From the UHGV virus genome UHGV-0041836: a stretch of 41,113 nucleotides of DNA. One strand, 5' to 3'. Made by a program: the position numbers and the translations under genes. Below are positions 1,447 to 39,134 of this stretch, in pieces. The stretch's first letter is position 1, and each line of letters begins with the position of its first letter. Source of the DNA: a virus. Under the pieces are notes generated by a model. It was not told the origin of the DNA. It saw nothing but the letters and a program-made list of their open reading frames with translations, and did no database searches.

Positions 1447-2139
1447 TTATTGCGTGAGCTTCGCATGATAGCTGGAGCATCTCTTGTCATCACTAATTAG
1501 CTCCGCTTTATCCGTTCTTGCCCATATTATATTTCTTTTTATTATTTTTGCTGGATTACCGGCTGCTGCACACATAGATGGCACATCTTTAGTTACAATA
1601 CTCCCATACCCAATGACAGATCCGCTTCCAACAGATACCCCTTTCATTATAGAGACATTTCTCCCTACCCATACGTAACTAGATATAATGATATCTTTTG
1701 CCCAATTAATCCTTTTTTTGCTATGAATATCAAATATAGGATGCCCATCTGATGCACGCAAAATAACATCTCTTGCTATCATGCAGTCATGGCCAATTGT
1801 AACATTGCACTTATCAGTGACGACTTCAAAACCTGCACCTATTGTCGTTCTTCTACCGATAATAACTTTTGAACCTTTTGTTGCGACAATATCACCTTTA
1901 ATCTTACTGTTTTTATGTATTCTTACGTAATTATTATCACCCCTAAATATTACGGTAAGCCATCGACACTCAACATCATCTTCTATAATAAGTTTGTTAT
2001 TGTTTCCATTGAACTGAACTTTATTCTCTTTGCTATTTACAAGATCTCCACATACAAAAATATTACCTGATCCATTATCATCAACGGAAAACGAGTCTTG
2101 AGTCTTGAGTCTTGAGTCTTGAGTCTTGAGTCTTGACAT
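1447..2139 (-). CDS. neuO: hexapeptide-repeat (left-handed beta-helix) O-acetyltransferase, NeuO-like polysialic acid O-acetyltransferase, phase-variable
   Basis: 230-aa ORF beginning MS(RLKTQDS)x2 encoded by heptanucleotide repeats; hexapeptide acetyltransferase-like body (VIIGRRTTIGAGFEVV, VWVGRNVSIMKGVSVGSGSVIGYGSIV); AT-rich codon usage; AGGA RBS 8 nt upstream of ATG. Confidence 0.85.
   Translation of the reverse strand: MSRLKTQDSRLKTQDSFSVDDNGSGNIFVCGDLVNSKENKVQFNGNNNKLIIEDDVECRWLTVIFRGDNNYVRIHKNSKIKGDIVATKGSKVIIGRRTTIGAGFEVVTDKCNVTIGHDCMIARDVILRASDGHPIFDIHSKKRINWAKDIIISSYVWVGRNVSIMKGVSVGSGSVIGYGSIVTKDVPSMCAAAGNPAKIIKRNIIWARTDKAELISDDKRCSSYHAKLTQ
2093..2134 (-). repeat. 6 tandem copies of heptanucleotide AAGACTC (coding strand) at codons 2-15 of neuO; contingency (phase-variation) tract
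   Basis: Plus strand shows GAGTCTT x6 immediately 5' of CAT (ATG on minus strand). 6 copies = 42 nt, so the reading frame is maintained. Confidence 0.95.
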
Positions 2140-2292: not shown

Positions 2293-5241
2293 TTAGTGCT
2301 TCCCTTCTATTAAGTCTAACCTAGCTTTTATTCTTTCTATTTCTCTGCGCTGCCATGCCGCCTCGATATAGAATAAGAGATCAGGTCTGACCCCCCATCT
2401 AGATCCTGCTGGCGTTATTTCAACGCGCTCAATGATGTCTTCCATTACCATCACTGGATTATCATCCTCATCAACAATGATGCTCCCGTCATTATCAGTC
2501 AGCGGCATTTCCCTTTGGCCAGTAATGACGTCATCATATACTGCGGGATAATCGTCATAGCAAAGAAACGCATAGCGGCATGTTGTGCTTTCTTCTTCCA
2601 TGAGTCCGTGAGAAATAAGAACATCACGAAGTTGCTGCGCGATTACACCATGATGTATCCTCGCCCCTTCTTCCCCCTTTATAGCGACAGCGTTCAGCCA
2701 TTTATAAGCGATATACCTGACGTCACCCCAGGCATCCAGCAATGCTTCGTCAGGAGAGACCGGCTCTGTCTTTAATGTTCCGTCACTGGTAACCACAGGA
2801 TTGGAGCCAAGATAAACTGTCGAGAACCTGTTTCCCGGACCACCAAGAGCATTTACATTATCAAGATAAGGTTTAACATCTCCGTTCTCAAAAAGATGTT
2901 CGAGTGCGTTATATACCGCGCGACGTGGAGTACTGCTTCCGGAACCATGCAACGTTATCATTGCACCATCTGCTGAAGACGTTGTTTCACCGCCGCTAAC
3001 GATTAATCTCTGAGCGGTAACATCATCAGACGGTACTTTCTTCGCAATAATGGCGTAATTACCCTCAAGTTTGACTTCCGCGCGAACTTGTCCTGATGTA
3101 CCTGCATGGACAGTCAGTGACTGGACGGCAACATCATCTGTGAAATCAACGGGTACAGGAACCGTCCTCACGCCTGACGTCGACATAAAAGTAGGAAGCG
3201 TTCTGTTAGGAGTGGCTCCGTAGACAAAATCCCTTGAAACAAATTCTTCCTGTTTAATTTTCACCCTGAAACAATACAAATCAGCCGGGTGACCATCGTG
3301 AACATAAGGATATTTTCTGTTGTTATCCCCTATGCTCCATGGGTTTAGAAAGTCTTCCCCACCGAAAATGTAGTACAGCCAGTTGTCTTTGATACAAACT
3401 GAACCAACACCAACCGCAGAGTTAACTATTCCGCCCTGATAAATCTGATCAGTAACATTAACCCACTCTACATTATCCAGACTCCACTCATTGACGTTAA
3501 CTCTGGTCATAAATGTTCTTGGATAGTTTCCTGCATAACGGTTATCAGGTTCTCCTCCTTCCCACTCACCAAATGCGCGCTCACTGCCAAAAATAATCAG
3601 CTCATCGCCAACTTTGGCAAAAGGAAGGTTTGAGTGATGAACATTATTTGGGAAGCGAAGAGAATTCCATGATGTACCTAAATCAGAGCTTCTGTGCAAT
3701 GAACTACCGGGTTGAGTACTTAATGTCCCCCTGGTCGTCAGATACAGAATGCCATCATAATATTTTACACATGGCTCAGATGCATTCGCCTCATATTCTG
3801 CAGGTATGCGTCTGCGAACAAAGCTACCAGGAGAACCGAAAGCATCAGAGAAATAGAGTATCCCAAGCTCGCGTGGACCAATATCACCATTATGGTAGCC
3901 AACAGCAAAACTGTTATCGCTAATCGTCGCAAAACTGTGAATCTCAGTAACAGGAGTGCTTCCGTCAACAAAAGAAGGAATAGTTCCAAGACTGGTTTTT
4001 CTCCATGGTGACGAGTGAAATGATGTACCAAAACTCCAGTATCTACCCTCGTTATTCTGATCCACATCCTGGGTATTTTGCGTCGTAACTGTAAAAGTAT
4101 TTTTATCAATAACAGTAGTCACCGTCATATTCCCGGTAACACCTGTAACACCAGAGTTTGAGAAGTTGACAAAATCACCAGCAAATAATCCGTGATCAGT
4201 AATGCGAATATAAGCGACTTGCTGATTTGCTGCTTTCGTTATACCACCATAAGCGCGAAGGCTGCGACTCATTGGGCGATCCCACAACTCTGCAACCTGC
4301 AGTTTATTTCCGCTCACGGTCCGCGTCTCAATTACAGCAAAAAGGCGATTTCTGACAACCCCCATACTCATGCAGTGATAGTTAACTGTGGGATAGTTTT
4401 CATGTAAATCTGTAAGCCATTCCGGCGTTGTCCAGGTCCTCCCGTCATCTCCTGAGCGAACCCATGCAACATGGAGGTTATTTACACCATGGCGGTCTCC
4501 AGCCATAAAAGGCGCATAGATGACATTGTCATATACAAACGTTTTATCCTGCGTCCAGGCGTTGTACCACGGTGTATCTGTAATTTTAAATAACTCTCCC
4601 TGGATAAAATCTTCAGAAGCATAAAAAAGAGGCTGACCCGGTATTCTCTCAAATAAAAAACGAGCATTTTTAAATCGACTGACATCTGGAAGAGTTGATA
4701 CTTTAAAAGTAAGCCCTCGCCCATCTATCTTTTCACCACCTGTTGCAACAGAAAGTAATTCTGATAGAGCTGATGTATCATCATGAACACCATCACCAAT
4801 AGCCCCCCAACCTCTTACATCATAACTGTCTCTCCATCTTGCTATCTGAAGTTTTGGGTATTTATTCGCTCCATCTGGGTCTTCTAATTGCTGCCGTAAC
4901 TGATCAGGATCATACTTCAGCACATTCGGAAAATAGAACTGCTGCACACCATATGCATCATAAACAGCCATAGAATGGCCCTGTACAGTAACGAATTTGG
5001 CAATCTGTCCGTTATATACCGGATATCCAGCAGCGTTAATGATGATTGGTTGCGAAACAGGAACGTGAGAACCGTCTTCATTCTCCACATAAACCTGAAT
5101 CTGGTTTTCAGGATTTACTGGGTCAGTGTCAATTTTACCGATATAAATCTTTCCATTAGCTACGGCTTTAAAAGAACGAGCCATAGTGAAGAGTTGCGAA
5201 GGCATGCTTACCACAACATTGGCATTTATTGAATCTGTCAT
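2293..5241 (-). CDS. tailspike: P22 gp9-like N-terminal head-binding domain, endo-N-acetylneuraminidase (endosialidase)-like central domain, C-terminal intramolecular-chaperone (peptidase S74-like) domain
   Basis: 982 aa; N-terminus [61 protein letters not shown] closely matches the P22 tailspike N-domain as recalled; Asp-box motifs SGDDGRTW and SSDLGTSW; C-terminal region resembles autoproteolytic chaperone domains of K1 endosialidases / T5 L-shaped fibre (from memory). Confidence 0.85.
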
Positions 5242-5375: not shown

Positions 5376-6305
5376 TCAGTAGTTATGTACTGAAGGAGGT
5401 AATTCTTTATTCTTAAGTCTCATCCATGCGGAAAGATTCGTTGGTCCGTCTGGCTCATTGATATCAACATCTCGTGTGTGGTTTATTAAAACGTCTCTTG
5501 CCATTCCGATAACATACGAGAACTCATGGCCATAGTCGTAGCATCTGCCGGAATAGTTCGATTGAATTTGTTTTAGCGCCGGATACAGTTCGCGGAATAA
5601 TGCCTGTGCGCGGTTGGCATAATCCCATAACCATACAAGGCTGTTTGCTTCTTTTGCAGAAAGCTCGTTTGCTTTCTTCTCTTGTTTGCCGATTAACTCG
5701 CCTTCAAGCGGAACGCGAGCTGCAAGTGACAGAGCTTCGGTAAACTGCTCATCGCTGATTTCTTTGTATGAACATCCAAAATGGGATTTCAGTGACGACC
5801 ACATGGTGATCATCGCCTTAGCCTGTTTTTCCTTTGGCAGAGACTGACCGCGACTCATGACGAGTTGTTTAATGGCTTCCTGCTGTTCAGTGGTGATTTT
5901 ACCCGGCAACGCCTTTTTAGCTTTGCGTGGGTTAACTACATGGCCTTTAGTCCAGTATTCGTAGAGCACATCGTCACACTCTTCCTGATACTGGATTACC
6001 TTGTCGCGGATTTCAGGGCGGACTTTGTTAGGGCTAATGGTTTGCAGCCAACCTGCAAGTTTGCGAAGTGCCAAACAAATAATCTCACGGCGCTGTTCAT
6101 CACTAGGAAGCTGCATTGTGATTTTCACAATGGAGGTTTTAAACCGCTGCTTCATTTTCGTAAACTGTGAAGCCCAATCCATACCCATGCCTTCAACGAT
6201 AGGTTTCATTGGGGTATACGGTTCGCCGTTGTGATTGACAACATAAAGCTCTGCGCCGTGGAATGGTACATTGATAGTAGATACTGCTGTTGCTATACTT
6301 TTCAT
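5376..6305 (-). CDS. ant: antirepressor Ant (P22 immI-type)
   Basis: 309 aa, N-terminus MKSIATAVSTINVPFHGAELYVVNHNGEPYTPMKPIVEGMGMDW typical of P22-like antirepressors; sits downstream of arc. Confidence 0.8.
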   Translation of the reverse strand: MKSIATAVSTINVPFHGAELYVVNHNGEPYTPMKPIVEGMGMDWASQFTKMKQRFKTSIVKITMQLPSDEQRREIICLALRKLAGWLQTISPNKVRPEIRDKVIQYQEECDDVLYEYWTKGHVVNPRKAKKALPGKITTEQQEAIKQLVMSRGQSLPKEKQAKAMITMWSSLKSHFGCSYKEISDEQFTEALSLAARVPLEGELIGKQEKKANELSAKEANSLVWLWDYANRAQALFRELYPALKQIQSNYSGRCYDYGHEFSYVIGMARDVLINHTRDVDINEPDGPTNLSAWMRLKNKELPPSVHNY

Positions 6306-6538
6306 GTCGTTAATTCCTATGCGTGGTTTTACGATACCGAAGCCCTGACTGTTCCCGCAGTTGGGGCTTCACTGTTTTGATTTCTTTGCCGCATCAAGCA
6401 TCACTTCTGAAAACGTGCGCTTGCCACTGAATACTCTTTCTCTTCTCAATTTTTCGTTCGTGCCAAATGATTCGCCATGAACAAAATTTGGTCTTAAAAT
6501 GGTAATCGCAATCTCTTTGACTACTGCATCCAAGCGAA

Positions 6539-24222: not shown

Positions 24223-24690
24223 TCATCGAAGGCATTGCGTCCTGATGTATTCCTGAAGCGTTCTCAGTGCTGTTTGGTCGCGGATAATTCCGTCCCGGAC
24301 ACCGAGAACGTTTCGTCCAGCAACTGGAGAGAGTTCGACGGTGGCATCATTGCCCATGCCGGAGGCGCCGGAGGTTTCGGCTGAGGATGGCACAGGGCAT
24401 TTTCCTTTGACGAGCACCCTGCCACCATTATCAAGCTTGCGCCGAAGAGCATCATTTTCAGCTTTCGCATCAGCTAACTCCTTCGTGTATTTAGCATCGA
24501 GTGCATCAGCAGCACGCTGGCGTCGCTGCATGTCAGTAATGGTGGCGGCCGCCTGCTTCAGCTCACTGACTTTTTTATCACGCTGTTCTTTGTAGGCGAT
24601 GGCGTTATCACGGTAATGATTAACAGCCCATGACAGGCAGACGATGATGCAGATAACCAGAGCAGAGATAATCGCGGTGACTCTGCTCAT
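24223..24690 (-). CDS. Rz: i-spanin Rz
   Basis: 155 aa; N-terminus [31 protein letters not shown] matches lambda Rz as recalled. Confidence 0.9.
24264..24470 (-). CDS. Rz1: o-spanin Rz1 (lipoprotein), embedded in Rz in +1 frame
   Basis: [21 protein letters not shown] lipobox followed by proline-rich [11 protein letters not shown]; embedded-gene architecture as in lambda. Confidence 0.75.
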
Positions 24691-25163
24691 ACCTCAATCT
24701 CTCTGACCGTTCCGCCAGCCTCTTTGAATTTTGCAATCAGGCTGTCAGCCTTATGCTCGAACTGACCATAACCAGCCCCCGGCAGTGAAGCCCAGATGTT
24801 GCTGCAACGGTCGATAGCCTGACGGATATCACCGCGATCAATCATCGGCAAAGCGCCACGTTCCTTAATCTGCTGCAGCGCAACAGCGTCCTGGCTTTTG
24901 GGAGAGAAGTCTTTCAGGCCAAGCTGCTTACGATAGGCATCCCACCAACGGGAAAGAAGCTGGTAACGTCCGGCTGCTGTTGATTTGAGTTTGGGGTTTA
25001 GCGTGACAAGTTTGCGAGGGTGATCGGAGTAATCAGTGAATAGCTCTCCGCCTACAATGACGTCATAACCGTGATTTCTGGTTTTCTGCCGTCCGTTATC
25101 TGTTCCTTCTGACCACGCCAGCATATCGAGGAACGCCTTACGTTGATTATTGATTTCCACCAT
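24687..25163 (-). CDS. R: endolysin (lambda R lytic transglycosylase)
   Basis: 158 aa; [51 protein letters not shown] matches lambda R as recalled. Confidence 0.95.
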
Positions 25164-25470
25164 CTTCTACTCCGGCTTTTTTAGCAGCGAAGCGTTTGAT
25201 AAGCGAACCAATCGAGTCAGTACCGATGTAGCCGATGAACACGCTCGTTATATAAGCGAGATTGCTACTTAGTCCGGCGAAGTCGAGAAGGTCACGAATG
25301 AACCAGGCGATAATGGCGCACATCGTTGCGTCGATTACTGTTTTTGTAAACGCACCGCCATTATATCTGCCGCGAAGGTACGCCATTGCAAACGCAAGGA
25401 TTGCCCCGATGCCTTGTTCCTTTGCCGCGAGAATGGCGGCTAACAGGTCATGTTTTTCTGGCATCTTCAT
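25147..25470 (-). CDS. S: holin (lambda S, class I)
   Basis: 107 aa; [43 protein letters not shown] matches lambda S with dual-start motif M-K-M. Confidence 0.92.
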
Positions 25471-25712
25471 GTCTTACCCCCAATAAGGGGATTTGCTCTA
25501 TTTAATTAGGAATAAGGTCTATTACTGATAGAACAAATCCAGGCTACTGTGTTTAGTAATCAGATTTGTTCGTGACCGATATGCACGGGCAAAACGGCAG
25601 GAGGTTGTTAGCGCAGCCTCTTGCCACCCGCTTTCACGAAGGTCATGTGTAGAAGGCCGCAGCGTAACTATCACTGATGAGTTCAGGATAGCCAGTGGCT
25701 ACGGCTCAGTTA

Positions 25713-25788
25713 TGGTGCTGGTTAACGGACTTGAACCGCTACCCATTCGCTTACAAGGCGACCGCTCTACCATTGGAGCTAAACCAGC
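25713..25788 (-). tRNA. tRNA-Thr (anticodon TGT) candidate
   Basis: Hand-folded cloverleaf on minus strand: GCTGGTT-TA-GCTC-CAATGGTA-GAGC-G-GTCGC-CTTGTAA-GCGAA-TGGGT-AGCGG-TTCAAGT-CCGTT-AACCAGC-A-CCA (76 nt; 7/7 acceptor pairs; encoded CCA). Confidence 0.7.
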
Positions 25789-25793
25789 ATATT

Positions 25794-25868
25794 TGGCGGG
25801 ACAGCGTGGACTCGAACCACGATAAGAAGGTTAACAGCCTTCCGTAATGACCTTTATACGACTGACCC
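25794..25868 (-). tRNA. tRNA-Asn-like (anticodon GTT) candidate, possibly degenerate
   Basis: Minus strand GGGTCAG...GAAGG-CTGTTAA-CCTTC-TTAT-CGTGG-TTCGAGT-CCACG-CTGTCCC-G-CCA; good anticodon and T arms, one acceptor mismatch (T-T) and a weak D-stem. Confidence 0.5.
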
Positions 25869-25870
25869 AA

Positions 25871-25930
25871 ATAAAAAATCCCGAAACCGTTGTGCAGGCT
25901 CTAACTATTACCTGCGAACTGTTTCGGGAT
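25871..25930 (-). terminator. tR'-type terminator of the short late leader (6S-like) transcript
   Basis: Minus strand AATCCCGAAAC...GTTTCGGGATT 10-bp stem followed by TTTTTTAT; matches the lambda tR' region as recalled. Confidence 0.7.
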
Positions 25931-26059
25931 TGCATTTTGCAGACCTCTCAGCCTGCGATGGTTGGAGTTCCAGACGATACGTCGAAGTGACCAACTAGGC
26001 GGAATCGGTAGTAAGCGCCGCCTCTTTTCATCTCACTACCACAACGAGCGAATTAACCC

Positions 26060-26105
26060 ATCGTTGGGTCAAATTTACCCAACTTTATTCAAAAAGTCAA
26101 TATTA
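26060..26105 (-). promoter_or_regulatory. late promoter pR' with Q-utilisation (qut) region
   Basis: Minus strand TTGACT (26100..26095), 17-nt spacer, TAAATT (26077..26072); immediately downstream of Q; matches lambda pR' as recalled. Confidence 0.7.
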
Positions 26106-26142
26106 TGCCGTTAATATGTTGCCATCCGTGGCAATCATGCTG

Positions 26143-26766
26143 TTAACGTGTGACCGCATTCAAAATGTTGTCTGCGATTGACTCTTCTTTGTGGCATTGC
26201 ACCACCAGAGCGTCATACAGCGGCTTAACAGTGCGTGACCAGGTGGGTTGAGTAAGGTTTGGGATTAGCATCGTTACAGCGCGATATGCGGCGCTTGCTG
26301 GCATTCTTGAATAGCCGACACCTTTGCATCTTCCGCACTCTTTCTCAACAACTCTCCCCCACTGCTCTGTTTTGGCTATATCAACCGCACGGCCTGTACC
26401 GTGGCAATCTCTGCATCTTGCGCCCGGCGTCGCGGCACTACGGCAATAATCCGCATAAGCGAATGTTGCGAGCACTTGCAGTACCTTTGCCTTAGTATTT
26501 CCTTCAAGCTTTGCAACGCCACGGTATTTCCCCGATACCTTGTGTGCAAATTGCATCAGATAGTTGATAGCCTTTTGTTTGTCGTTCTGGCTGAGTTCGT
26601 GCTTACCACAGAATGCAGCCATTCCGAATCCGGCTTGTGATTGCGCCATCCCCATAGCAGCCATCACATCAGTACCGGAAAGAGAGTCAGAAGCCGTAGC
26701 CCGTGGTGAGTCGCTCATCATCGGGCTTTTTGGCGAATGAAATTTAGCTGCGCTTTCGAGTCTCAT
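26143..26766 (-). CDS. Q: late-gene antiterminator Q (lambda type)
   Basis: 207 aa; MRLES.AKFHSPKSPMMSDSPRATASDSLSGTDVMAAMGMAQSQAGFGMAAFCGKHELSQNDKQKAINYLMQFAHKVSGKYRG matches lambda Q as recalled; Cys-rich zinc motif CRDCHGTGR...CGRCKG. Confidence 0.95.
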   Translation of the reverse strand: MRLESAAKFHSPKSPMMSDSPRATASDSLSGTDVMAAMGMAQSQAGFGMAAFCGKHELSQNDKQKAINYLMQFAHKVSGKYRGVAKLEGNTKAKVLQVLATFAYADYCRSAATPGARCRDCHGTGRAVDIAKTEQWGRVVEKECGRCKGVGYSRMPASAAYRAVTMLIPNLTQPTWSRTVKPLYDALVVQCHKEESIADNILNAVTR

Positions 26767-26951
26767 GGCCTTCCCCTTTTGCCCTGTTTGACCATCAGGA
26801 CGCCGTTAACTATTACGTGACGCTCGCCTTTGCTGTCTCGGTTGTACTTGAGCACTGTTCCTCTTGCGCAGGAAAGCATCCTTGCCACTTCGGTCTGATT
26901 GCCTCGTGTCTGGATAAGAAGCTCTGGTATCGTTTGAATTGTGGCGTTCAT
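26763..26951 (-). CDS. ninH: NinH-like protein
   Basis: 62 aa; IPELLIQTRGNQTEVARMLSCARGTVLKY resembles lambda NinH; immediately upstream of Q. Confidence 0.75.
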   Translation of the reverse strand: MNATIQTIPELLIQTRGNQTEVARMLSCARGTVLKYNRDSKGERHVIVNGVLMVKQGKRGRP

Positions 26952-27310
26952 GCGTTCTCCAGTTCGGTGATTTTTATTCCAAGCCTTCCGCCTGGTACTT
27001 TCACGCCACGAATTACGCGAATGTCATCGAATTGCTCGTCGTCTTCCGCAAATCCGGCGTGGATAAGGGAGTCGAGTAAACCTTTCAGGATGTTGTCGAG
27101 GTCGCGACGGCGGGAGTCCGGAACGTCTACGATGACTTTGATGCGGAGTCGTGATTTGGTGAAAATGTCTAACTTAAGTTGGCGGATGATTTGCTGAACG
27201 TCTTTTCGGTATTTCTGGCCTTTATCGCTGATGTAGTATTGGCTTCCCCGTCTTCGCCAGTAGGTATTCACCGACGGCGGGTATGGAAGCACAAACTGAT
27301 ATTCGTTCAT
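26948..27310 (-). CDS. rusA: RusA-family Holliday-junction resolvase
   Basis: 120 aa; YWRRRG...DVPDSRRRDLDNILKGLLDSLIHAGFAEDDEQ matches the RusA catalytic core (D-x-DN) as recalled. Confidence 0.88.
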   Translation of the reverse strand: MNEYQFVLPYPPSVNTYWRRRGSQYYISDKGQKYRKDVQQIIRQLKLDIFTKSRLRIKVIVDVPDSRRRDLDNILKGLLDSLIHAGFAEDDEQFDDIRVIRGVKVPGGRLGIKITELENA

Positions 27311-28960: not shown

Positions 28961-29167
28961 TCAACTCACAAAACGCCACGCCACTTTTGCAACGACAACA
29001 GGCATAACACCGATAATCACCCACAGGAAAATGCTACCGAAAAGCACACCCACCAGGTCTTTACCTTCGCCTACCAACCGGACAAAACTTCCGACAACCA
29101 CAATGAACGTCGACACCATCCACATAGCACCGAGAATCCTCAATGCAGAGAAAATTAACTCAGCCAC
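28961..29167 (-). CDS. small putative membrane protein (two hydrophobic segments), GTG start
   Basis: 68-aa ORF with two predicted transmembrane helices; start codon GTG; a further 26-codon hydrophobic ORF (29163..29243) lies upstream, overlapping the primase-helicase stop. Confidence 0.3.
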   Translation of the reverse strand: MAELIFSALRILGAMWMVSTFIVVVGSFVRLVGEGKDLVGVLFGSIFLWVIIGVMPVVVAKVAWRFVS

Positions 29168-29243
29168 GATTTACTCTCCCCCAAATAAAAAGGCCTGCGA
29201 TTACCAGCAGGCCTGTTACAAGCTCACTGATGTAGATGGTCAT

Positions 29244-31124
29244 TTAATACTCCGTCACGTTTTCCTGTCGCCACGCCTCGTCATATTCCGATTTCGGCAT
29301 ATTGGCGATGTAGCTATATGGCGATCCTGATTCAAGTTGCAGGAACTGGTGCGATTGCTCGTCAAGGAACAACGGGACACCACCTTCCCAACCTTCGCCG
29401 TTACGTTGTTTTTCAAGCATCAAAACAGATGCCGGAGATGCCAGTAGCTGTTCGTCCTTCTCTGACATCTTTTCACCACTCTGAACTCTCTGTAACGCTC
29501 TCTCGCGAGCCTTGTTACGCCAGATGATGAAAAGGTTGTCTGTCAGGTCTGTTATCGCTCCAGAGCCTTTTACGTCCATTTTCCCGGTTGGTTTTTCTTC
29601 GCTGTCTCCTTTTCGCGAGTGAGTAACGAGAATGACGTGGGAGTTTGTTTTGTTTTTGAAGTCGCAAATCGAGTCAACAAACGCCTTCTGCCCGTTATAG
29701 TCATCGTCGCCTATGCCACATTTCATCAGGCTGTCGATGATGAATAACTGGATCCCGTATCGGCGGCGAGCGTAGTCGAATATTTCGATCAGCCTGTCGG
29801 CTTTCGCCGTTCCGGTCAGGCCAAACACCCAAAGTCTTTCGTCATAAAATTTAAATGCAGAGTCAATTTCCAGCACTGGCGGCATCTTGCAGCACGTCGC
29901 CTGACGGGTAAGTCGCTTAAGGAGAATGCCTGGCTTCAGCTCAAGTGACGCGATGCACGTCTTCACACCCTGACGCATTGCCTCAAGTGCCATATGCCCG
30001 ACAACCTCCGTTTTTCCGTGACCGTTCACACCATTGACCAGCGTCAACTCTGCCTCACGGAACTGGAATTTATCTGCCAGAGATTCCCACGGTGGATTAA
30101 ACAGATACTGCTGCTTGCCGTAGAAAGCGTTGATAGTGTCCTGGTAAAACTCTCGCGCGCTGTAGAGTTCTTCAGGATCGAAGTAGGATGCCGTGCCGAT
30201 GTACTGCCAGATTTCATCCTCGGTAACACCGTTCATCAGGCATTCGTTGATGTCTTTGTACGGCAGAGTAACAAGACGGCAACGATGTTCACCGAGTCGG
30301 CTTGCGATTTCCCTTGCGGCTTCACGACCAACATCATCAACGTCCATCGAGATGAATATTTCCTCAAACCTGTCGAGGTTGTGATACTCAAACTCAATCC
30401 ACTGCTGTTTAGCGCCTTTCCCGCCACCAAACGGCACGGATAACGCCGAGATGCCATATTGCGCATAGCTCATACAATCAATTTCGCCTTCGCAAAGTAC
30501 AACCGCCCTCACGCCAGCGTCCAGAGCCTGCCATCCAAACAGACAAGGTTCGCAATCACCTTCTGCCATAATGACTTTCTTCCCGTCCGGTCGCTCAGTG
30601 CTGATTCGCTTGACCTGCAACAACTCACCATCGCGTTTGTACGGAAGCACCAGTGCATCAAGTTCTCGTTCTCCATTCCACACCTTGCCGCTGACAACCT
30701 CGTAGCGCTTTACGACTTCTGGCGATATGCCACGCGATTGCAGGTACTCAAGATGGGATTCTGTTCTGGTAACGTAGCGGGCGATTTTCTTGCGGTCAGG
30801 TCTGGAGAATTTCTTCTCACGTTTGGCATCGAAATGGTGATCGTCATCCTTGATTCCGAGAAAGGCTTTCGCTTCCTGCATAGCCTGATGCAGGTTAATT
30901 CCACGACATGCCATCCACAAATCAAGCATGTCACCGCCGTCTCCCTCAGCGAAATCAGCCCATTTTTTCTTGCCGCTAAGGTTGACCTTAAGGCTGTTTC
31001 CCTTGTCACCGTTGACGTTACCGGCAACCCACTCATGCCCCTCTTTCTTGCCGTTTGGCAACAGGTGCGGAGCCACCCTGTCAACCTGCGCCCAAAGCAG
31101 GTCACTGAGTTCACTTGGCGTCAT
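29244..31124 (-). CDS. bifunctional DNA primase / replicative helicase (Toprim-primase N-part, DnaB/RepA-like P-loop helicase C-part)
   Basis: 626 aa; Toprim-like acidic motifs (LCEGEIDCMSY, DVDDVGREAA) and Walker A-like NGVNGHGKTEV; occupies the position of lambda P / P22 gene 12. Confidence 0.8.
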   Translation of the reverse strand: MTPSELSDLLWAQVDRVAPHLLPNGKKEGHEWVAGNVNGDKGNSLKVNLSGKKKWADFAEGDGGDMLDLWMACRGINLHQAMQEAKAFLGIKDDDHHFDAKREKKFSRPDRKKIARYVTRTESHLEYLQSRGISPEVVKRYEVVSGKVWNGERELDALVLPYKRDGELLQVKRISTERPDGKKVIMAEGDCEPCLFGWQALDAGVRAVVLCEGEIDCMSYAQYGISALSVPFGGGKGAKQQWIEFEYHNLDRFEEIFISMDVDDVGREAAREIASRLGEHRCRLVTLPYKDINECLMNGVTEDEIWQYIGTASYFDPEELYSAREFYQDTINAFYGKQQYLFNPPWESLADKFQFREAELTLVNGVNGHGKTEVVGHMALEAMRQGVKTCIASLELKPGILLKRLTRQATCCKMPPVLEIDSAFKFYDERLWVFGLTGTAKADRLIEIFDYARRRYGIQLFIIDSLMKCGIGDDDYNGQKAFVDSICDFKNKTNSHVILVTHSRKGDSEEKPTGKMDVKGSGAITDLTDNLFIIWRNKARERALQRVQSGEKMSEKDEQLLASPASVLMLEKQRNGEGWEGGVPLFLDEQSHQFLQLESGSPYSYIANMPKSEYDEAWRQENVTEY

Positions 31125-36819: not shown

Positions 36820-36957
36820 CCATCAATCACCAGATGCTTCGTGCTGCACAGAACAAAGCAGTAATAGCCAGATTTATTGGTGATTCCAAAATGTGGCTTG
36901 AAGCAAATAAAGCGATGAAATCAGCTATCAACCTTCCGTGGTATCGCAGGAAATGAG
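36805..36957 (+). CDS. small hypothetical ORF (50 aa)
   Basis: MRNEIAINHQMLRAAQNKAVIARFIGDSKMWLEANKAMKSAINLPWYRRK; ATGA overlap with the next ORF. Confidence 0.3.
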
Positions 36958-37112
36958 TTTTACAGATAACTGGTCAGACGAAGAATTCATTCGTCAGATT
37001 AAAGAATTAATCGGTAACGAAGGAGATATTCATGTCACTTGCAACCACAGTGAAGGAGAGCAAGTTACAGAGACGCATGTACACGCAGAAAGCTCTCTGG
37101 TATCGCCATAAT
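36954..37112 (+). CDS. small hypothetical ORF (52 aa)
   Basis: MSFTDNWSDEEFIRQIKELIGNEGDIHVTCNHSEGEQVTETHVHAESSLVSP. Confidence 0.3.
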
Positions 37113-37212: not shown

Positions 37213-37818
37213 ATGAGCAAAGAATTTTACGCAAGACTGGCAGCTATTCAGGAGAATCTGAACGCGCCAAAGAATCAGTACAACTCATTCGGCAAATATA
37301 AATACAGAAGCTGCGAAGATATTCTTGAAGGCGTTAAGCCGTTACTGAACGGTCTGTTTTTATCAATCAGCGATGAAGTTGTGTTGATTGGTGATCGGTA
37401 TTACGTGAAAGCCACGGCAACTATTACCGATGGCGAAAACAGTCATACGGCAACCGCTCTTGCACGAGAGGAAGAAAGCAAGAAAGGAATGGATTCTGCA
37501 CAAGTTACGGGAGCTACAAGCTCTTATGCACGCAAGTATTGCCTCAATGGTTTGTTCGGCATTGATGATGCGAAAGATGCAGATACAGACGAGCATAAAC
37601 ATCAGCAGAACGCAGCAGCAAAGCAATCAAAACCATCACTTACACCTGAACAGGTTCTAAAAGCATTCACTGACGCAGCAATGCAGAAAAACACCGTAGA
37701 AGAGCTTAAACAGGCGTTCGCCAAAGCGTGGAAGATGCTCGAAGGGACGCCGGAGCAGCACAAAGCGCAGGACGTTTACAACATCAGACGAGACGAATTA
37801 GAAGGGGCAACTGCTTAA
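37213..37818 (+). CDS. erf: Erf-family single-strand annealing protein
   Basis: MSKEFYARLAAIQENLNAPKNQYNSFGKYKYRSCEDILEGVKPLLNGLFLSISDEVVLIGDRYYVKATATITDGENSH matches P22 Erf as recalled; start at ATG 37213 (track ORF begins at 37183). Confidence 0.9.
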   Translation: MSKEFYARLAAIQENLNAPKNQYNSFGKYKYRSCEDILEGVKPLLNGLFLSISDEVVLIGDRYYVKATATITDGENSHTATALAREEESKKGMDSAQVTGATSSYARKYCLNGLFGIDDAKDADTDEHKHQQNAAAKQSKPSLTPEQVLKAFTDAAMQKNTVEELKQAFAKAWKMLEGTPEQHKAQDVYNIRRDELEGATA

Positions 37819-38201
37819 TGGCACATTCGATTACAGTAAGACTAAACAAACCCGCAAGAGAGTTTCAGGGCGGGGAAAATATCGGATTCAACATCCGTGC
37901 TGGCGTTCAGTATTACGATCGCCAGACAAAAAAGAAAGAATGGACAAACTACAGCGCCGTTGTATTTGCCAAGCCGGGAGCGCAAGCGGATTACTATCGT
38001 AGCGTTCTGGTTGAAGGAGGCATTGTAGAAATTACCGGAGAAAACATCAGGGTTGATGTTTATCAGGGGCAAAATGGTCAATCAATCACTCTTGAATTAC
38101 TGAATGCAAAGATTGGATTTGCAACTTCAGGAAACAGCCAACAGCAGCAAAGTAGCAATCATCAAAATAATCCTGAATACGACGATTCCATCCCATTCTG
38201 A
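37818..38201 (+). CDS. single-stranded DNA-binding protein-like (OB fold with SSB-type acidic C-terminal tail DDSIPF)
   Basis: 127 aa from ATG 37818 (TAATG overlap with erf stop); C-terminus ...QQQQSSNHQNNPEYDDSIPF resembles the SSB DDDIPF tail. Confidence 0.65.
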   Translation: MAHSITVRLNKPAREFQGGENIGFNIRAGVQYYDRQTKKKEWTNYSAVVFAKPGAQADYYRSVLVEGGIVEITGENIRVDVYQGQNGQSITLELLNAKIGFATSGNSQQQQSSNHQNNPEYDDSIPF

Positions 38202-38224
38202 TTTAGAAAAATAAGGATTTAATT

Positions 38225-38521
38225 ATGCCAGCGCCTTTGTATGGTGCGGATGACCCGCGCCGCTGTTCCGGCAATTCCGTATCGGAGGTGCTGGATAAAT
38301 TCAGAAAAAACTACGATCGAATAATGTCTCTACCGCAGGAAACGAAAGAGGAAAAGGAATTTCGCCACTGTATATGGCTTGCAGAGAAAGAAGAACGCGA
38401 GCGAATTTACCAGACATCAATCCGACCATTCCGCAAAGCCACATATACCCACTTCCCTGAATATATCGACCCGCGCCTGCGTAATTACCGCTCACGCTAT
38501 GGCGCTATCAGTAATGACTGA
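38225..38521 (+). CDS. abc2: Abc2-like anti-RecBCD protein
   Basis: 98 aa; MPAPLYGADDPRR...IMSLPQETKEEKEFRHCIWLAEKEER resembles P22 Abc2 as recalled; adjacent to erf as in P22. Confidence 0.6.
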   Translation: MPAPLYGADDPRRCSGNSVSEVLDKFRKNYDRIMSLPQETKEEKEFRHCIWLAEKEERERIYQTSIRPFRKATYTHFPEYIDPRLRNYRSRYGAISND

Positions 38522-38597: not shown

Positions 38598-39134
38598 GTG
38601 GCGGAGTGGGAAGAAATGAAACAAATGTCACTAATTGAGATGGATGGTTTTCTGAAAGGTAAATGCATCCCAAGTGATTTAAAGGTTAACGAAACAAACG
38701 CTGAATACCTTGTCCGTAAGTTCGGCGAACTTGAATCAAAACTGGAAACGGCGTTGCGGGAGTGTAGTTCTGCTGGAATCACGATTGATAACCTTGAGGC
38801 TAAATGCGCGAAGATGGCTGCTGAAAATACCTCACTTAAGCAATCTGAGAAGGAATTTAATGACTTTTGTCGTGAGGAGTTTAGCGAATGGGAAGATGAT
38901 GTTACTGAAACCCCAGCCACCGATGCTTTTCTGGCTGAAGTGCGGGCGCAGGGGGTGGATGCTGCTATAGAAGCTGCAAAAAATCTGGTGGCCCAAGAAT
39001 ATGAGTATAAGGATTTCAAAGCGGCGCAGAGTGATTGCTGTATGCACCCTGGTTCAGACCTGGTAGGGAAGGTTGAAATGACTGAGTGGTTAGTTGACTT
39101 TGCTGCCCAGCTTCGCAAAGGAGGCAACCAGTGA
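38598..39134 (+). CDS. hypothetical early-left (Ea-type) protein
   Basis: 178-aa acidic ORF with predicted coiled-coil; possible alternative start at 38616. Confidence 0.5.
   Translation: MAEWEEMKQMSLIEMDGFLKGKCIPSDLKVNETNAEYLVRKFGELESKLETALRECSSAGITIDNLEAKCAKMAAENTSLKQSEKEFNDFCREEFSEWEDDVTETPATDAFLAEVRAQGVDAAIEAAKNLVAQEYEYKDFKAAQSDCCMHPGSDLVGKVEMTEWLVDFAAQLRKGGNQ

Follow-up and report, generated by a model that had tools for sequence, protein, structure and literature searches.

The two tRNA genes that lie between the late terminator tR' and the lysis gene S of this phage form a standard, widespread and previously annotated lambdoid cassette, the Asn(GUU)-Thr(UGU) pair. We propose, with a probability of roughly 0.6, that this cassette, set here on a lambda-type Q/pR'/tR' and S, is expressed by read-through of the terminator and that its main benefit to the phage is counter-defence against Toprim-family nucleases. 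Specifically, the phage tRNAs would act as cleavage-resistant stand-ins for host tRNAs that are destroyed by abortive-infection nucleases of the Toprim family; such nucleases are borne by rival P2/P4-type elements, and the added capacity for decoding ACA would be a compatible side benefit.

The window analysed is the whole stretch of 41,113 nucleotides from virus genome UHGV-0041836. Across these 41 kb ARAGORN called exactly two tRNA genes, both on the minus strand, which is the late strand. The same two genes were recovered with Rfam model RF00005, at 61.2 bits (E = 5e-11) for tRNA-Thr and 55.3 bits (E = 2e-9) for tRNA-Asn; the gathering score of this model is 29, both genes exceed it, and two independent predictors agree. 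An earlier note, made from the letters alone, had put a pair of tRNA genes on the late strand, past tR' and ahead of S, and had named ARAGORN as a check. Both minus-strand genes are indeed called by that program, and the coordinates from ARAGORN and Rfam are identical to those of the note. The features of the late region are as follows.

26143-26766, minus strand: Q, a lambda-type late antiterminator; ORF of 207 aa, 99.5% identical to HK446 gp54
26072-26100, minus strand: late promoter pR', with -35 TTGACT, a 17 nt spacer and -10 TAAATT; aligns with lambda pR'
25873-25928, minus strand: terminator tR', with the hairpin at 25928-25880 and the T-tract at 25878-25873; the hairpin is present in the MFE fold
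25794-25868, minus strand: tRNA-Asn(GUU), 75 nt, G73 discriminator; ARAGORN and Rfam
25789-25793, minus strand: spacer AAUAU, 5 nt, separating tRNA-Asn and tRNA-Thr; read directly from the sequence
25713-25788, minus strand: tRNA-Thr(UGU), 76 nt, A73; ARAGORN and Rfam
25471-25712, minus strand: lambda-type S leader, from alignment to lambda; about 243 nt from tRNA-Thr to S
24223-25470, minus strand: lysis genes S (25147-25470), R (24687-25163) and Rz (24223-24690), as ORFs

On the late strand tRNA-Asn precedes tRNA-Thr, and the CCA ends are gene-encoded in tRNA-Asn and tRNA-Thr alike. The anticodon arm of tRNA-Asn reads GAAGG-CUGUUAA-CCUUC. In the Rfam alignment this tRNA is marked with mismatches at U4•U69 in the acceptor stem and U13•U22 in the D-stem, which correspond to the acceptor mismatch and weak D-stem that had been noticed when the Asn-like gene was folded by hand. 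The anticodon arm of tRNA-Thr reads GUCGC-CUUGUAA-GCGAA, with a U28-A42 pair; at the base of its stem G27 and A43 are mismatched. The earlier description of the Thr gene as canonical has to be qualified, since the G27•A43 mismatch leaves it not fully canonical.

The pattern of variation among natural copies indicates that both are bona fide tRNA genes under selection. Compensatory double changes were found at 6 base pairs of tRNA-Asn (17 cells), with 90% of cells paired among 21 distinct natural variants, and at 5 pairs of tRNA-Thr (14 cells), with 94.7% of cells paired among 17 distinct natural variants. These changes are spread over all four helices. Slid-register controls gave 0-2 pairs with compensatory change, in variants that had been collected with a search pattern fixing portions of the D and T arms. 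The anticodon stem of tRNA-Asn is completely paired in all 21 distinct variants; A28-U42 has become C28-G42 in several of them, and one variant has two pairs altered. The mismatches are themselves conserved: U4•U69 is kept in 19 and U13•U22 in 21 of the 21 distinct tRNA-Asn variants, while G27•A43 is kept in all 17 distinct tRNA-Thr variants and a 27•43 mismatch is present in 117 of the 119 ARAGORN-called tRNA-Thr copies among the matches listed. Lastly, the established identity sets of E. coli ThrRS (G1-C72, C2-G71, G35 and U36) and AsnRS (G34, U35, U36 and G73) are found in full in the window tRNA-Thr and tRNA-Asn, respectively.

The late leader around the two genes is closely related to that of lambda. 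The 6S-type leader is ~190 nt long, carries tR' at its end and shows 2 mismatches to lambda over its full length; G1 of tRNA-Asn lies about 3-4 nt past the T-tract of tR' (AUUU, 25872-25869). Downstream of the tRNAs, S, R and Rz are the first late genes, and the window S is 99% identical to HK446 gp55. In the annotation of Kapi1 the counterparts of S, R and Rz are named holin, endolysin and Rz. The earlier note had described the flanks as the lambda pR'-tR' region and S leader, and both sides are ~99% identical to lambda: one flank corresponds to Q/pR'/6S/tR', the opposite one to the S leader. It had further described the tRNA genes as inserted into this leader; the alignment corrects this to a replacement, in which 159 bp in the window substitute for a 163-bp stretch of lambda (44782-44944) that is unrelated in sequence. 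The left mosaic junction falls inside the T-tract TTTTTTAT, which is common to lambda-type and 21-type terminators. At the right junction, lambda homology restarts at AACTGAGCC, 2-3 nt beyond the CCA of tRNA-Thr, and the sequence downstream of this junction is also carried by phage 21 and Sf6.

The displaced lambda segment 44782-44944 was also considered as a decayed relic of the tRNA pair and was rejected. Global alignment gave z = 1.1 and, relative to shuffled sequence, p = 0.15; among controls drawn from real sequence 22% scored equally high, and an Rfam tRNA signal was absent even at E = 10. The lambda filler does resemble the cassette in its near-equal length and in scattered matches.

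The idea that the pair is an unusual insertion did not survive comparison with other genomes. The 176-bp cassette is at least 98% identical in 59 phage records, and a prophage-borne pair is annotated by PGAP in 369 of 5,426 complete E. coli genomes. Both tRNA-Asn and tRNA-Thr are annotated in phage 21, Sf6, SfI, BTP1, Kapi1, mEp506, Bas106 and others; the BASEL paper makes no mention of the Bas106 tRNAs. The cassette is present yet unannotated in HK446, and tRNA-Asn is unannotated in both the HK446 and phiv205-1 records. Among the IMG/VR matches listed, the Asn-Thr array is found in 108 of the 132 contigs with the Asn gene; again among the matches listed, the preceding tR' is of the 21 type in ~100 and of the lambda type in ~16. 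The window cassette shows 98.9-100% identity to those of phage 21, Sf6, SfI, HK446 and Kapi1 over 174-176 nt. Its tRNA-Asn is 100% identical to that of phage 21, Sf6, Kapi1, JLK-2012 and L. Its tRNA-Thr matches both tRNA-Thr21 of phage 21 and the HK446 copy at 75 of 76 positions, the sole difference being G26 in place of A26, and this G26 form accounts for 26 of 120 natural copies among the matches listed.

In phage 21, Sf6, SfI and BTP1 the two tRNAs occur in the same order, with the same 5-nt spacing and at the same site directly past the late terminator as in the window. These phages, however, have a 21-type Q, pR' and short tR' where the window has a lambda-type Q, 6S leader and tR', and the spacer reads AACAU in phage 21 and Sf6 but AAUAU in the window. 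The lambda-like downstream sequence of the window is common to Sf6, and to phage 21 for ~70 nt. The exact architecture of the window (lambda-type Q, Asn-Thr, lambda-type S) is found in Kapi1, mEp506 and HK446, which are 98.7-98.8% identical to it over the 901 bp from Q to S, with one base different in the cassette; HK446 is an HK97-group siphovirus, whereas the window is a P22-like podovirus genome. phiv205-1 is 100% identical to the window over Q-S but differs in its replication genes and an IS, and on this comparison the window genome is a mosaic separate from phiv205-1. Overall, the cassette accompanies the Q-lysis junction in the siphoviruses 21 and HK446, the myovirus SfI and the podoviruses Sf6 and Kapi1. 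Its occurrence in phages with unrelated structural genes is easier to reconcile with a role directed at the host than with adjustment to a single set of genes.

With regard to expression, pR' was the sole sigma-70-like site on this strand in a consensus scan of 25000-27000. The scan of this minus-strand region gave no other sigma-70-like promoter for the tRNAs and no terminator-like site between the tRNAs and S, although such a negative scan carries little weight. Since tRNA-Asn abuts the terminator and no other promoter-like site is present, read-through of tR' appears to be the only evident source of both tRNAs. Dependence of their expression on Q antitermination is likely, and leakage through tR' from the constitutive pR' is possible. 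Accordingly modelled, both tRNAs would be transcribed when RNA polymerase passes tR', chiefly in its Q-modified form with a contribution from the constitutive pR' leak, and host tRNA-processing enzymes would excise them from the late transcript, with RNase P cutting at G1 of each. RNA-seq of Kapi1 is reported to give a lysogen signal antisense to the tRNAs.

The proposal of counter-defence draws on published work on P2 OLD, which is the effector behind the classic interference of P2 with lambda (Govande et al., PMC12445682). This nuclease kills cells by cleaving tRNA-Thr(UGU), on which all ACA decoding depends, within the anticodon stem, where CNG motifs are paired, and phage tRNA-Thr(UGU) genes rescue OLD-attacked cells (PMC12445682). 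More specifically, tRNA-Thr21 of phage 21 shields cells from P2 OLD and is almost fully cleavage-resistant at Site 1 in vitro, a resistance ascribed to a shorter anticodon stem together with C28U/G42A (PMC12445682). HK446 escapes OLD (Derzhaev et al., bioRxiv 10.64898/2026.07.10.737580), and when its tRNA-Thr(UGU) is supplied, HK97, HK542 and Bas34, which are OLD-sensitive, plate again (bioRxiv 10.64898/2026.07.10.737580). The published OLD rescue results all come from plasmid-expressed tRNA, and the UGU anticodon was needed for rescue by a different phage tRNA-Thr.

The anticodon arm of the window tRNA-Thr is identical to those of phage 21 and HK446, with G27•A43 unpaired and the C28U/G42A change; its nucleotides 28-30/40-42 read UCG/CGA, against CUG/CAG in host thrU. 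It therefore shares the sequence characters of the OLD-resistant class, namely a UGU anticodon, an altered CNG motif and a shortened stem (PMC12445682). By analogy we infer that the window tRNA-Thr, in its G26 form, would resist OLD, as resistance or rescue has been demonstrated for molecules differing from it only at unpaired nucleotide 26. In the mechanism that we propose, P2 OLD kills lambda-like infections chiefly through an anticodon-stem cut of tRNA-Thr(UGU), the only ACA decoder in the cell. In the phage tRNA-Thr the stem is shortened by G27•A43 and the paired CNG cleavage motifs are removed by C28U/G42A; so altered, it should survive, and the ACA-rich late genes should stay translatable. 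The Thr tRNAs of T4, Bas32 and Bas33 likewise act against OLD, following the same logic of anticodon-stem substitution as the window cassette.

Some evidence stands against this reading. The HK446 tRNA-Thr failed to rescue lambda or OLD toxicity in recB cells (bioRxiv 10.64898/2026.07.10.737580), and the authors of that preprint doubt that the tRNA is the main anti-OLD tool of HK446, which also has Oad2 (bioRxiv 10.64898/2026.07.10.737580). Late-only expression may moreover come too late, because early functions trigger OLD. In HK446 the trigger is Gp33, and gp27, or Oad2, is a protein inhibitor of OLD (bioRxiv 10.64898/2026.07.10.737580). Homologues of both are encoded in the window, on either side of a plus-strand recombination locus (37213-38521) that is made up of Erf, a Gp31-like gene and Abc2.

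36938-37111, plus strand: homologue of HK446/HK75 Gp33; 86.5% identity over 52/56 aa by tblastn
37213-37815, plus strand: Erf; 99% identity to HK446 gp32
37818-38198, plus strand: Gp31-like; 98% identity to HK446 gp31
38225-38521, plus strand: Abc2; 97% identity to HK446 gp30 and 93% to P22 Abc2
38598-39134, plus strand: distant homologue of Oad2 (HK446 gp27); 50% identity by tblastn

A Pfam search gave no domain in the Gp33-like, Gp31-like or Oad2-like proteins of the window. HK446 has an active Oad2, whereas the window has a 50% homologue only. OLD inhibition by the latter is doubtful, because a homologue from HK75 that is 54% identical to Oad2 gave no OLD inhibition (bioRxiv 10.64898/2026.07.10.737580). 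With its Gp33 homologue at 86.5% and its Oad2 homologue at merely 50%, the window phage is probably an OLD trigger that leans on its tRNA more than HK446 does.

For tRNA-Asn, the same protective role may apply to a secondary target of both OLD and AriB. Host tRNA-Asn(GUU) is a slower OLD substrate. The main targets of the PARIS nuclease AriB are Lys(UUU) and Thr(UGU), with Asn(GUU) as a secondary yet biologically relevant one (PMC12409363). AriB cuts at 40/41 beside a UAAU39 motif (PMC12409363); a tRNA-Lys with the single change U39A is no longer cut by AriB, and A41C reduces the cleavage strongly. Nucleotides 36-41 read UAACCU in the phage tRNA-Asn against UAAUCC in host asnT, and UAAGCG in the phage tRNA-Thr against UAAUCA in that of the host. 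Both window tRNAs are thus substituted at or around the AriB 40/41 cut site and have lost the UAAU39 motif. At nucleotides 28-30/40-42 the phage tRNA-Asn has AAG/CUU where host asnT has CGG/CCG, and it is without both OLD CNG motifs as well as without the U39 determinant and the position-41 base that PARIS AriB needs. On these grounds both window tRNAs are predicted to be AriB-resistant.

The T5 set of Lys, Thr and Asn tRNAs that acts against PARIS has the same anticodons and also bears stem substitutions at or near the cut sites (PMC12409363). U39G is common to T5 Thr and lambdoid Thr, and U39 is lost from both Asn tRNAs (PMC12409363). In the T5-like phage Cyrano, Asn and Thr are adjacent and in the order seen in the window. 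T5, T4, Bas32 and Bas33 are, however, lytic phages with large arrays expressed early or in the middle phase, whereas the window has two genes in the late leader of a temperate phage; its tRNAs are 62-80% identical to those of the T5/T4/Bas32/Bas33 type, and it is without tRNA-Lys(UUU). Bypass of PARIS from E. coli B185 requires a resistant tRNA-Lys(UUU) (PMC12409363). As no tRNA-Lys(UUU) gene is among the ARAGORN calls in the 41 kb window, the cassette is not classifiable as a complete anti-PARIS set.

We put forward a narrower proposal, tentatively and at somewhat worse than even odds: that in temperate lambdoid phages Asn(GUU) and Thr(UGU) constitute a minimal two-tRNA counter-defence module against the Toprim tRNases of rival P2 prophages (OLD) and P4-type satellites (PARIS-like AriB variants), with tRNA-Asn itself cleavage-resistant and measurably aiding escape. 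The pairing would then not be accidental; the target lists of OLD and AriB share exactly these two tRNAs. The argument from tRNA-Asn is suggestive only, since its divergence from host asnT (63% identity overall) runs over the full length and is not specifically concentrated at the nuclease sites. A Klebsiella-phage variant of tRNA-Asn has the paired CNG motifs restored (CAG/CUG). In OLD tRNA-seq, the set of tRNAs that fell by more than 2-fold did not include Asn, and the same preprint describes HK446 as having one tRNA (bioRxiv 10.64898/2026.07.10.737580).

The best-placed alternative to counter-defence is codon supplementation only, according to which the tRNAs would add capacity for ACA and AAC/AAU and speed virion protein synthesis, with no relation to nucleases. 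In Stx phages such as 933W, the same slot of a lambdoid genome, past the late promoter and terminator but ahead of the first late genes, is occupied by the tRNA genes ileZ-argN-argO, downstream of Q/pR'; these are other tRNA species, for rare Ile and Arg codons, and they have traditionally been ascribed to codon supplementation for stx and late genes. Codon supplementation was also proposed in the genome papers of SfI, phage L/ST64T (PMC8022706) and Kapi1, which describe the tRNAs of the present cassette with citations of Sf6, PS3 and phage 21. Codon usage in the window and in reference gene sets was as follows.

Window late genes: ACA 18.0 per 1000 codons; Asn codons 4.74%
Window early genes: ACA 13.3 per 1000 codons; Asn codons 4.03%
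E. coli 50-kb sample: ACA 5.2 per 1000 codons; Asn codons 3.54%
Lambda late genes, no tRNAs: ACA 10.3 per 1000 codons; Asn codons 3.62%
P22 late genes, no tRNAs: ACA 13.1 per 1000 codons; Asn codons 5.36%

ACA is thus 3.5 times commoner in the window late genes than in the 50-kb E. coli sample (p = 7e-17) and somewhat above its frequency in lambda (10.3) and P22 (13.1). An ACA bias of this kind is likewise reported for SfI, and for the coat gene of phage L its genome paper notes 24 of 25 AAC codons (PMC8022706). The E. coli gene for tRNA-Thr(UGU) is single-copy, and an ACA frequency of 18.0 against 5.2 per 1000 implies that the late genes lean heavily on it. Yet the tRNA-less lambda and P22 are also ACA-enriched, by 2-2.5 fold, and so are the early genes of the window (13.3). 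Demand for Asn, at 4.74%, is not above the 5.36% of tRNA-less P22, and the SfI authors found no Asn bias; supplementation for Asn was rejected as unsupported. The suggestion in the earlier note that the tRNAs could support late-gene translation therefore holds in no more than a general way, with ACA in excess over the host sample but enriched in lambda and P22 too. For ACA, codon supplementation is weakly supported, and it leaves the distribution of cassette carriers unexplained.

Codon supplementation alone also leaves unexplained why G27•A43 is conserved and uncompensated. In published assays, overexpressed host tRNA-Thr(UGU) gave no rescue, but phage versions did, which implies that sequence counts and not dose alone. 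We therefore regard supplementation as the sole function of the cassette as unlikely. Under the counter-defence reading, by comparison, late genes so rich in ACA would suffer particularly when tRNA-Thr(UGU) is lost, and the codon data fit that reading as well.

We also considered the cassette as a structural or processing element, which would serve as an RNase P/RNase E entry that detaches the 6S leader and fixes the 5' end of the lysis mRNA or its stability, or as a neutral passenger hitch-hiking at a recombination hotspot. The mosaic junctions on both sides, in the terminator T-tract and just past the CCA, and the exchange of the cassette with an unrelated 163-bp lambda filler argue that the slot tolerates varied content. 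A processing element would have no need, however, of conserved anticodons, synthetase identity elements, an encoded CCA and compensatory changes in four helices, and the Thr tRNAs of phage 21 and HK446 are functional in vivo from plasmids, which speaks against element and passenger alike. Both readings are improbable on this evidence.

Lastly, the tRNAs might make up for damage that an integrating prophage does to a host tRNA gene, as was raised for HK446 in the preprint discussion (bioRxiv 10.64898/2026.07.10.737580) and as HK446 and SfI do integrate in a Thr tRNA gene, thrW, but this is very improbable indeed, given that thrW encodes tRNA-Thr(CGU) and not UGU, that Kapi1 carries the cassette while integrating in argW and leaving argW intact, that neither an Asn nor a Thr(UGU) gene is targeted in Kapi1, SfI or HK446, and that a late operon behind tR' is a poor site for expression in a lysogen. 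The Kapi1 att core was sought in the window, which starts at int, and was absent from it.

As a discovery the cassette is of little weight. Its annotation goes back to the sequences of Sf6 and phage 21, automatic pipelines call it in hundreds of E. coli genomes, and experiments of 2025-26 worked out what the Thr member does. What the cassette still offers is a lead towards the tRNA-Asn partner and the Asn-Thr pairing. If the two-tRNA module proposal is true, temperate phages would carry a compact anti-nuclease kit, and siting behind tR' would let the cassette guard late-protein synthesis specifically.

The virus genome UHGV-0041836 is a mosaic, and no phage record matched it end to end (1-41113). 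Its late half was found to be closest to phiv205-1 (86% coverage) and CUS-3 (75% coverage), and its early half to mEp043 (72%) and Sf101 (59%). Across the segment running from Q through the tRNA genes to the holin gene S, the genome and phiv205-1 were 100% identical. Neither tRNA-Asn nor tRNA-Thr is annotated in the phiv205-1 record (about 29145-29320), and the same is true of the HK446 record (NC_019714; 35097-35171).

Four features lie at the immI region and beside the integrase gene:

1447-2139, minus strand: hexapeptide-repeat acyltransferase gene, between the integrase gene and the tailspike/tail-fibre gene
2293-5241, minus strand: tailspike/tail-fibre gene (982 aa), beside the acyltransferase gene
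5376-6305, minus strand: ant-like antirepressor gene, its start adjoining the sar RNA
6307-6373, plus strand: sar antisense RNA (Rfam RF00262, 76.6 bits)

The sar RNA and the ant-like gene constitute a P22-type immI region, and the acyltransferase probably acetylates O-antigen in lysogenic conversion. Two further genes are related to HK446 proteins reported to act on OLD, the P2 prophage tRNase that cuts host tRNA-Thr(UGU), and no Pfam domain was detected in either product:

36938-37111, plus strand: homologue of Gp33, the reported OLD trigger (86.5% identity)
38598-39134, plus strand: distant homologue of the OLD inhibitor Oad2 (only 50% identity)

RNA-seq of a Kapi1 lysogen is reported to show clear transcription on the strand opposite the tRNAs, with a transcript said to resemble one in BTP1 (PMC12922286). 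A consensus scan of the plus strand between 25000 and 27000, which includes the corresponding antisense region (25470-25870), revealed no sigma-70-like promoter.

Some other arrays carry a chimeric Thr gene, with a phage-like 5' half and a 3' half resembling the host gene thrU (JLK-2012, 1291-1366; sequences L109, L110, L122 and L120); in L120 the anticodon arm is entirely of host type. The JLK-2012-type gene has two further uncompensated changes, G42U and U43C, and an anticodon stem reduced to 3 bp, and with this stem it received no call from ARAGORN. It looks as though phage genes recombined with host thrU and their stems then shortened or decayed. Phages L, ST64T and PS3 have a second tRNA, called as Leu(UAA), that retains a Thr-like acceptor stem with a different anticodon arm (phage L/ST64T, 1291-1362), and a terminator is annotated between it and the lysis genes.

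Neighbouring tRNA-Asn and tRNA-Thr genes were also found in Cyrano, an unrelated, virulent T5-like phage, in the same order as in the lambdoid cassette and separated by 2 nt (273-425). The lambdoid tRNA-Thr shares 80% identity with that of Cyrano versus 71% with host thrU. These similarities hint that Asn and Thr tRNA genes have passed from one phage to another.
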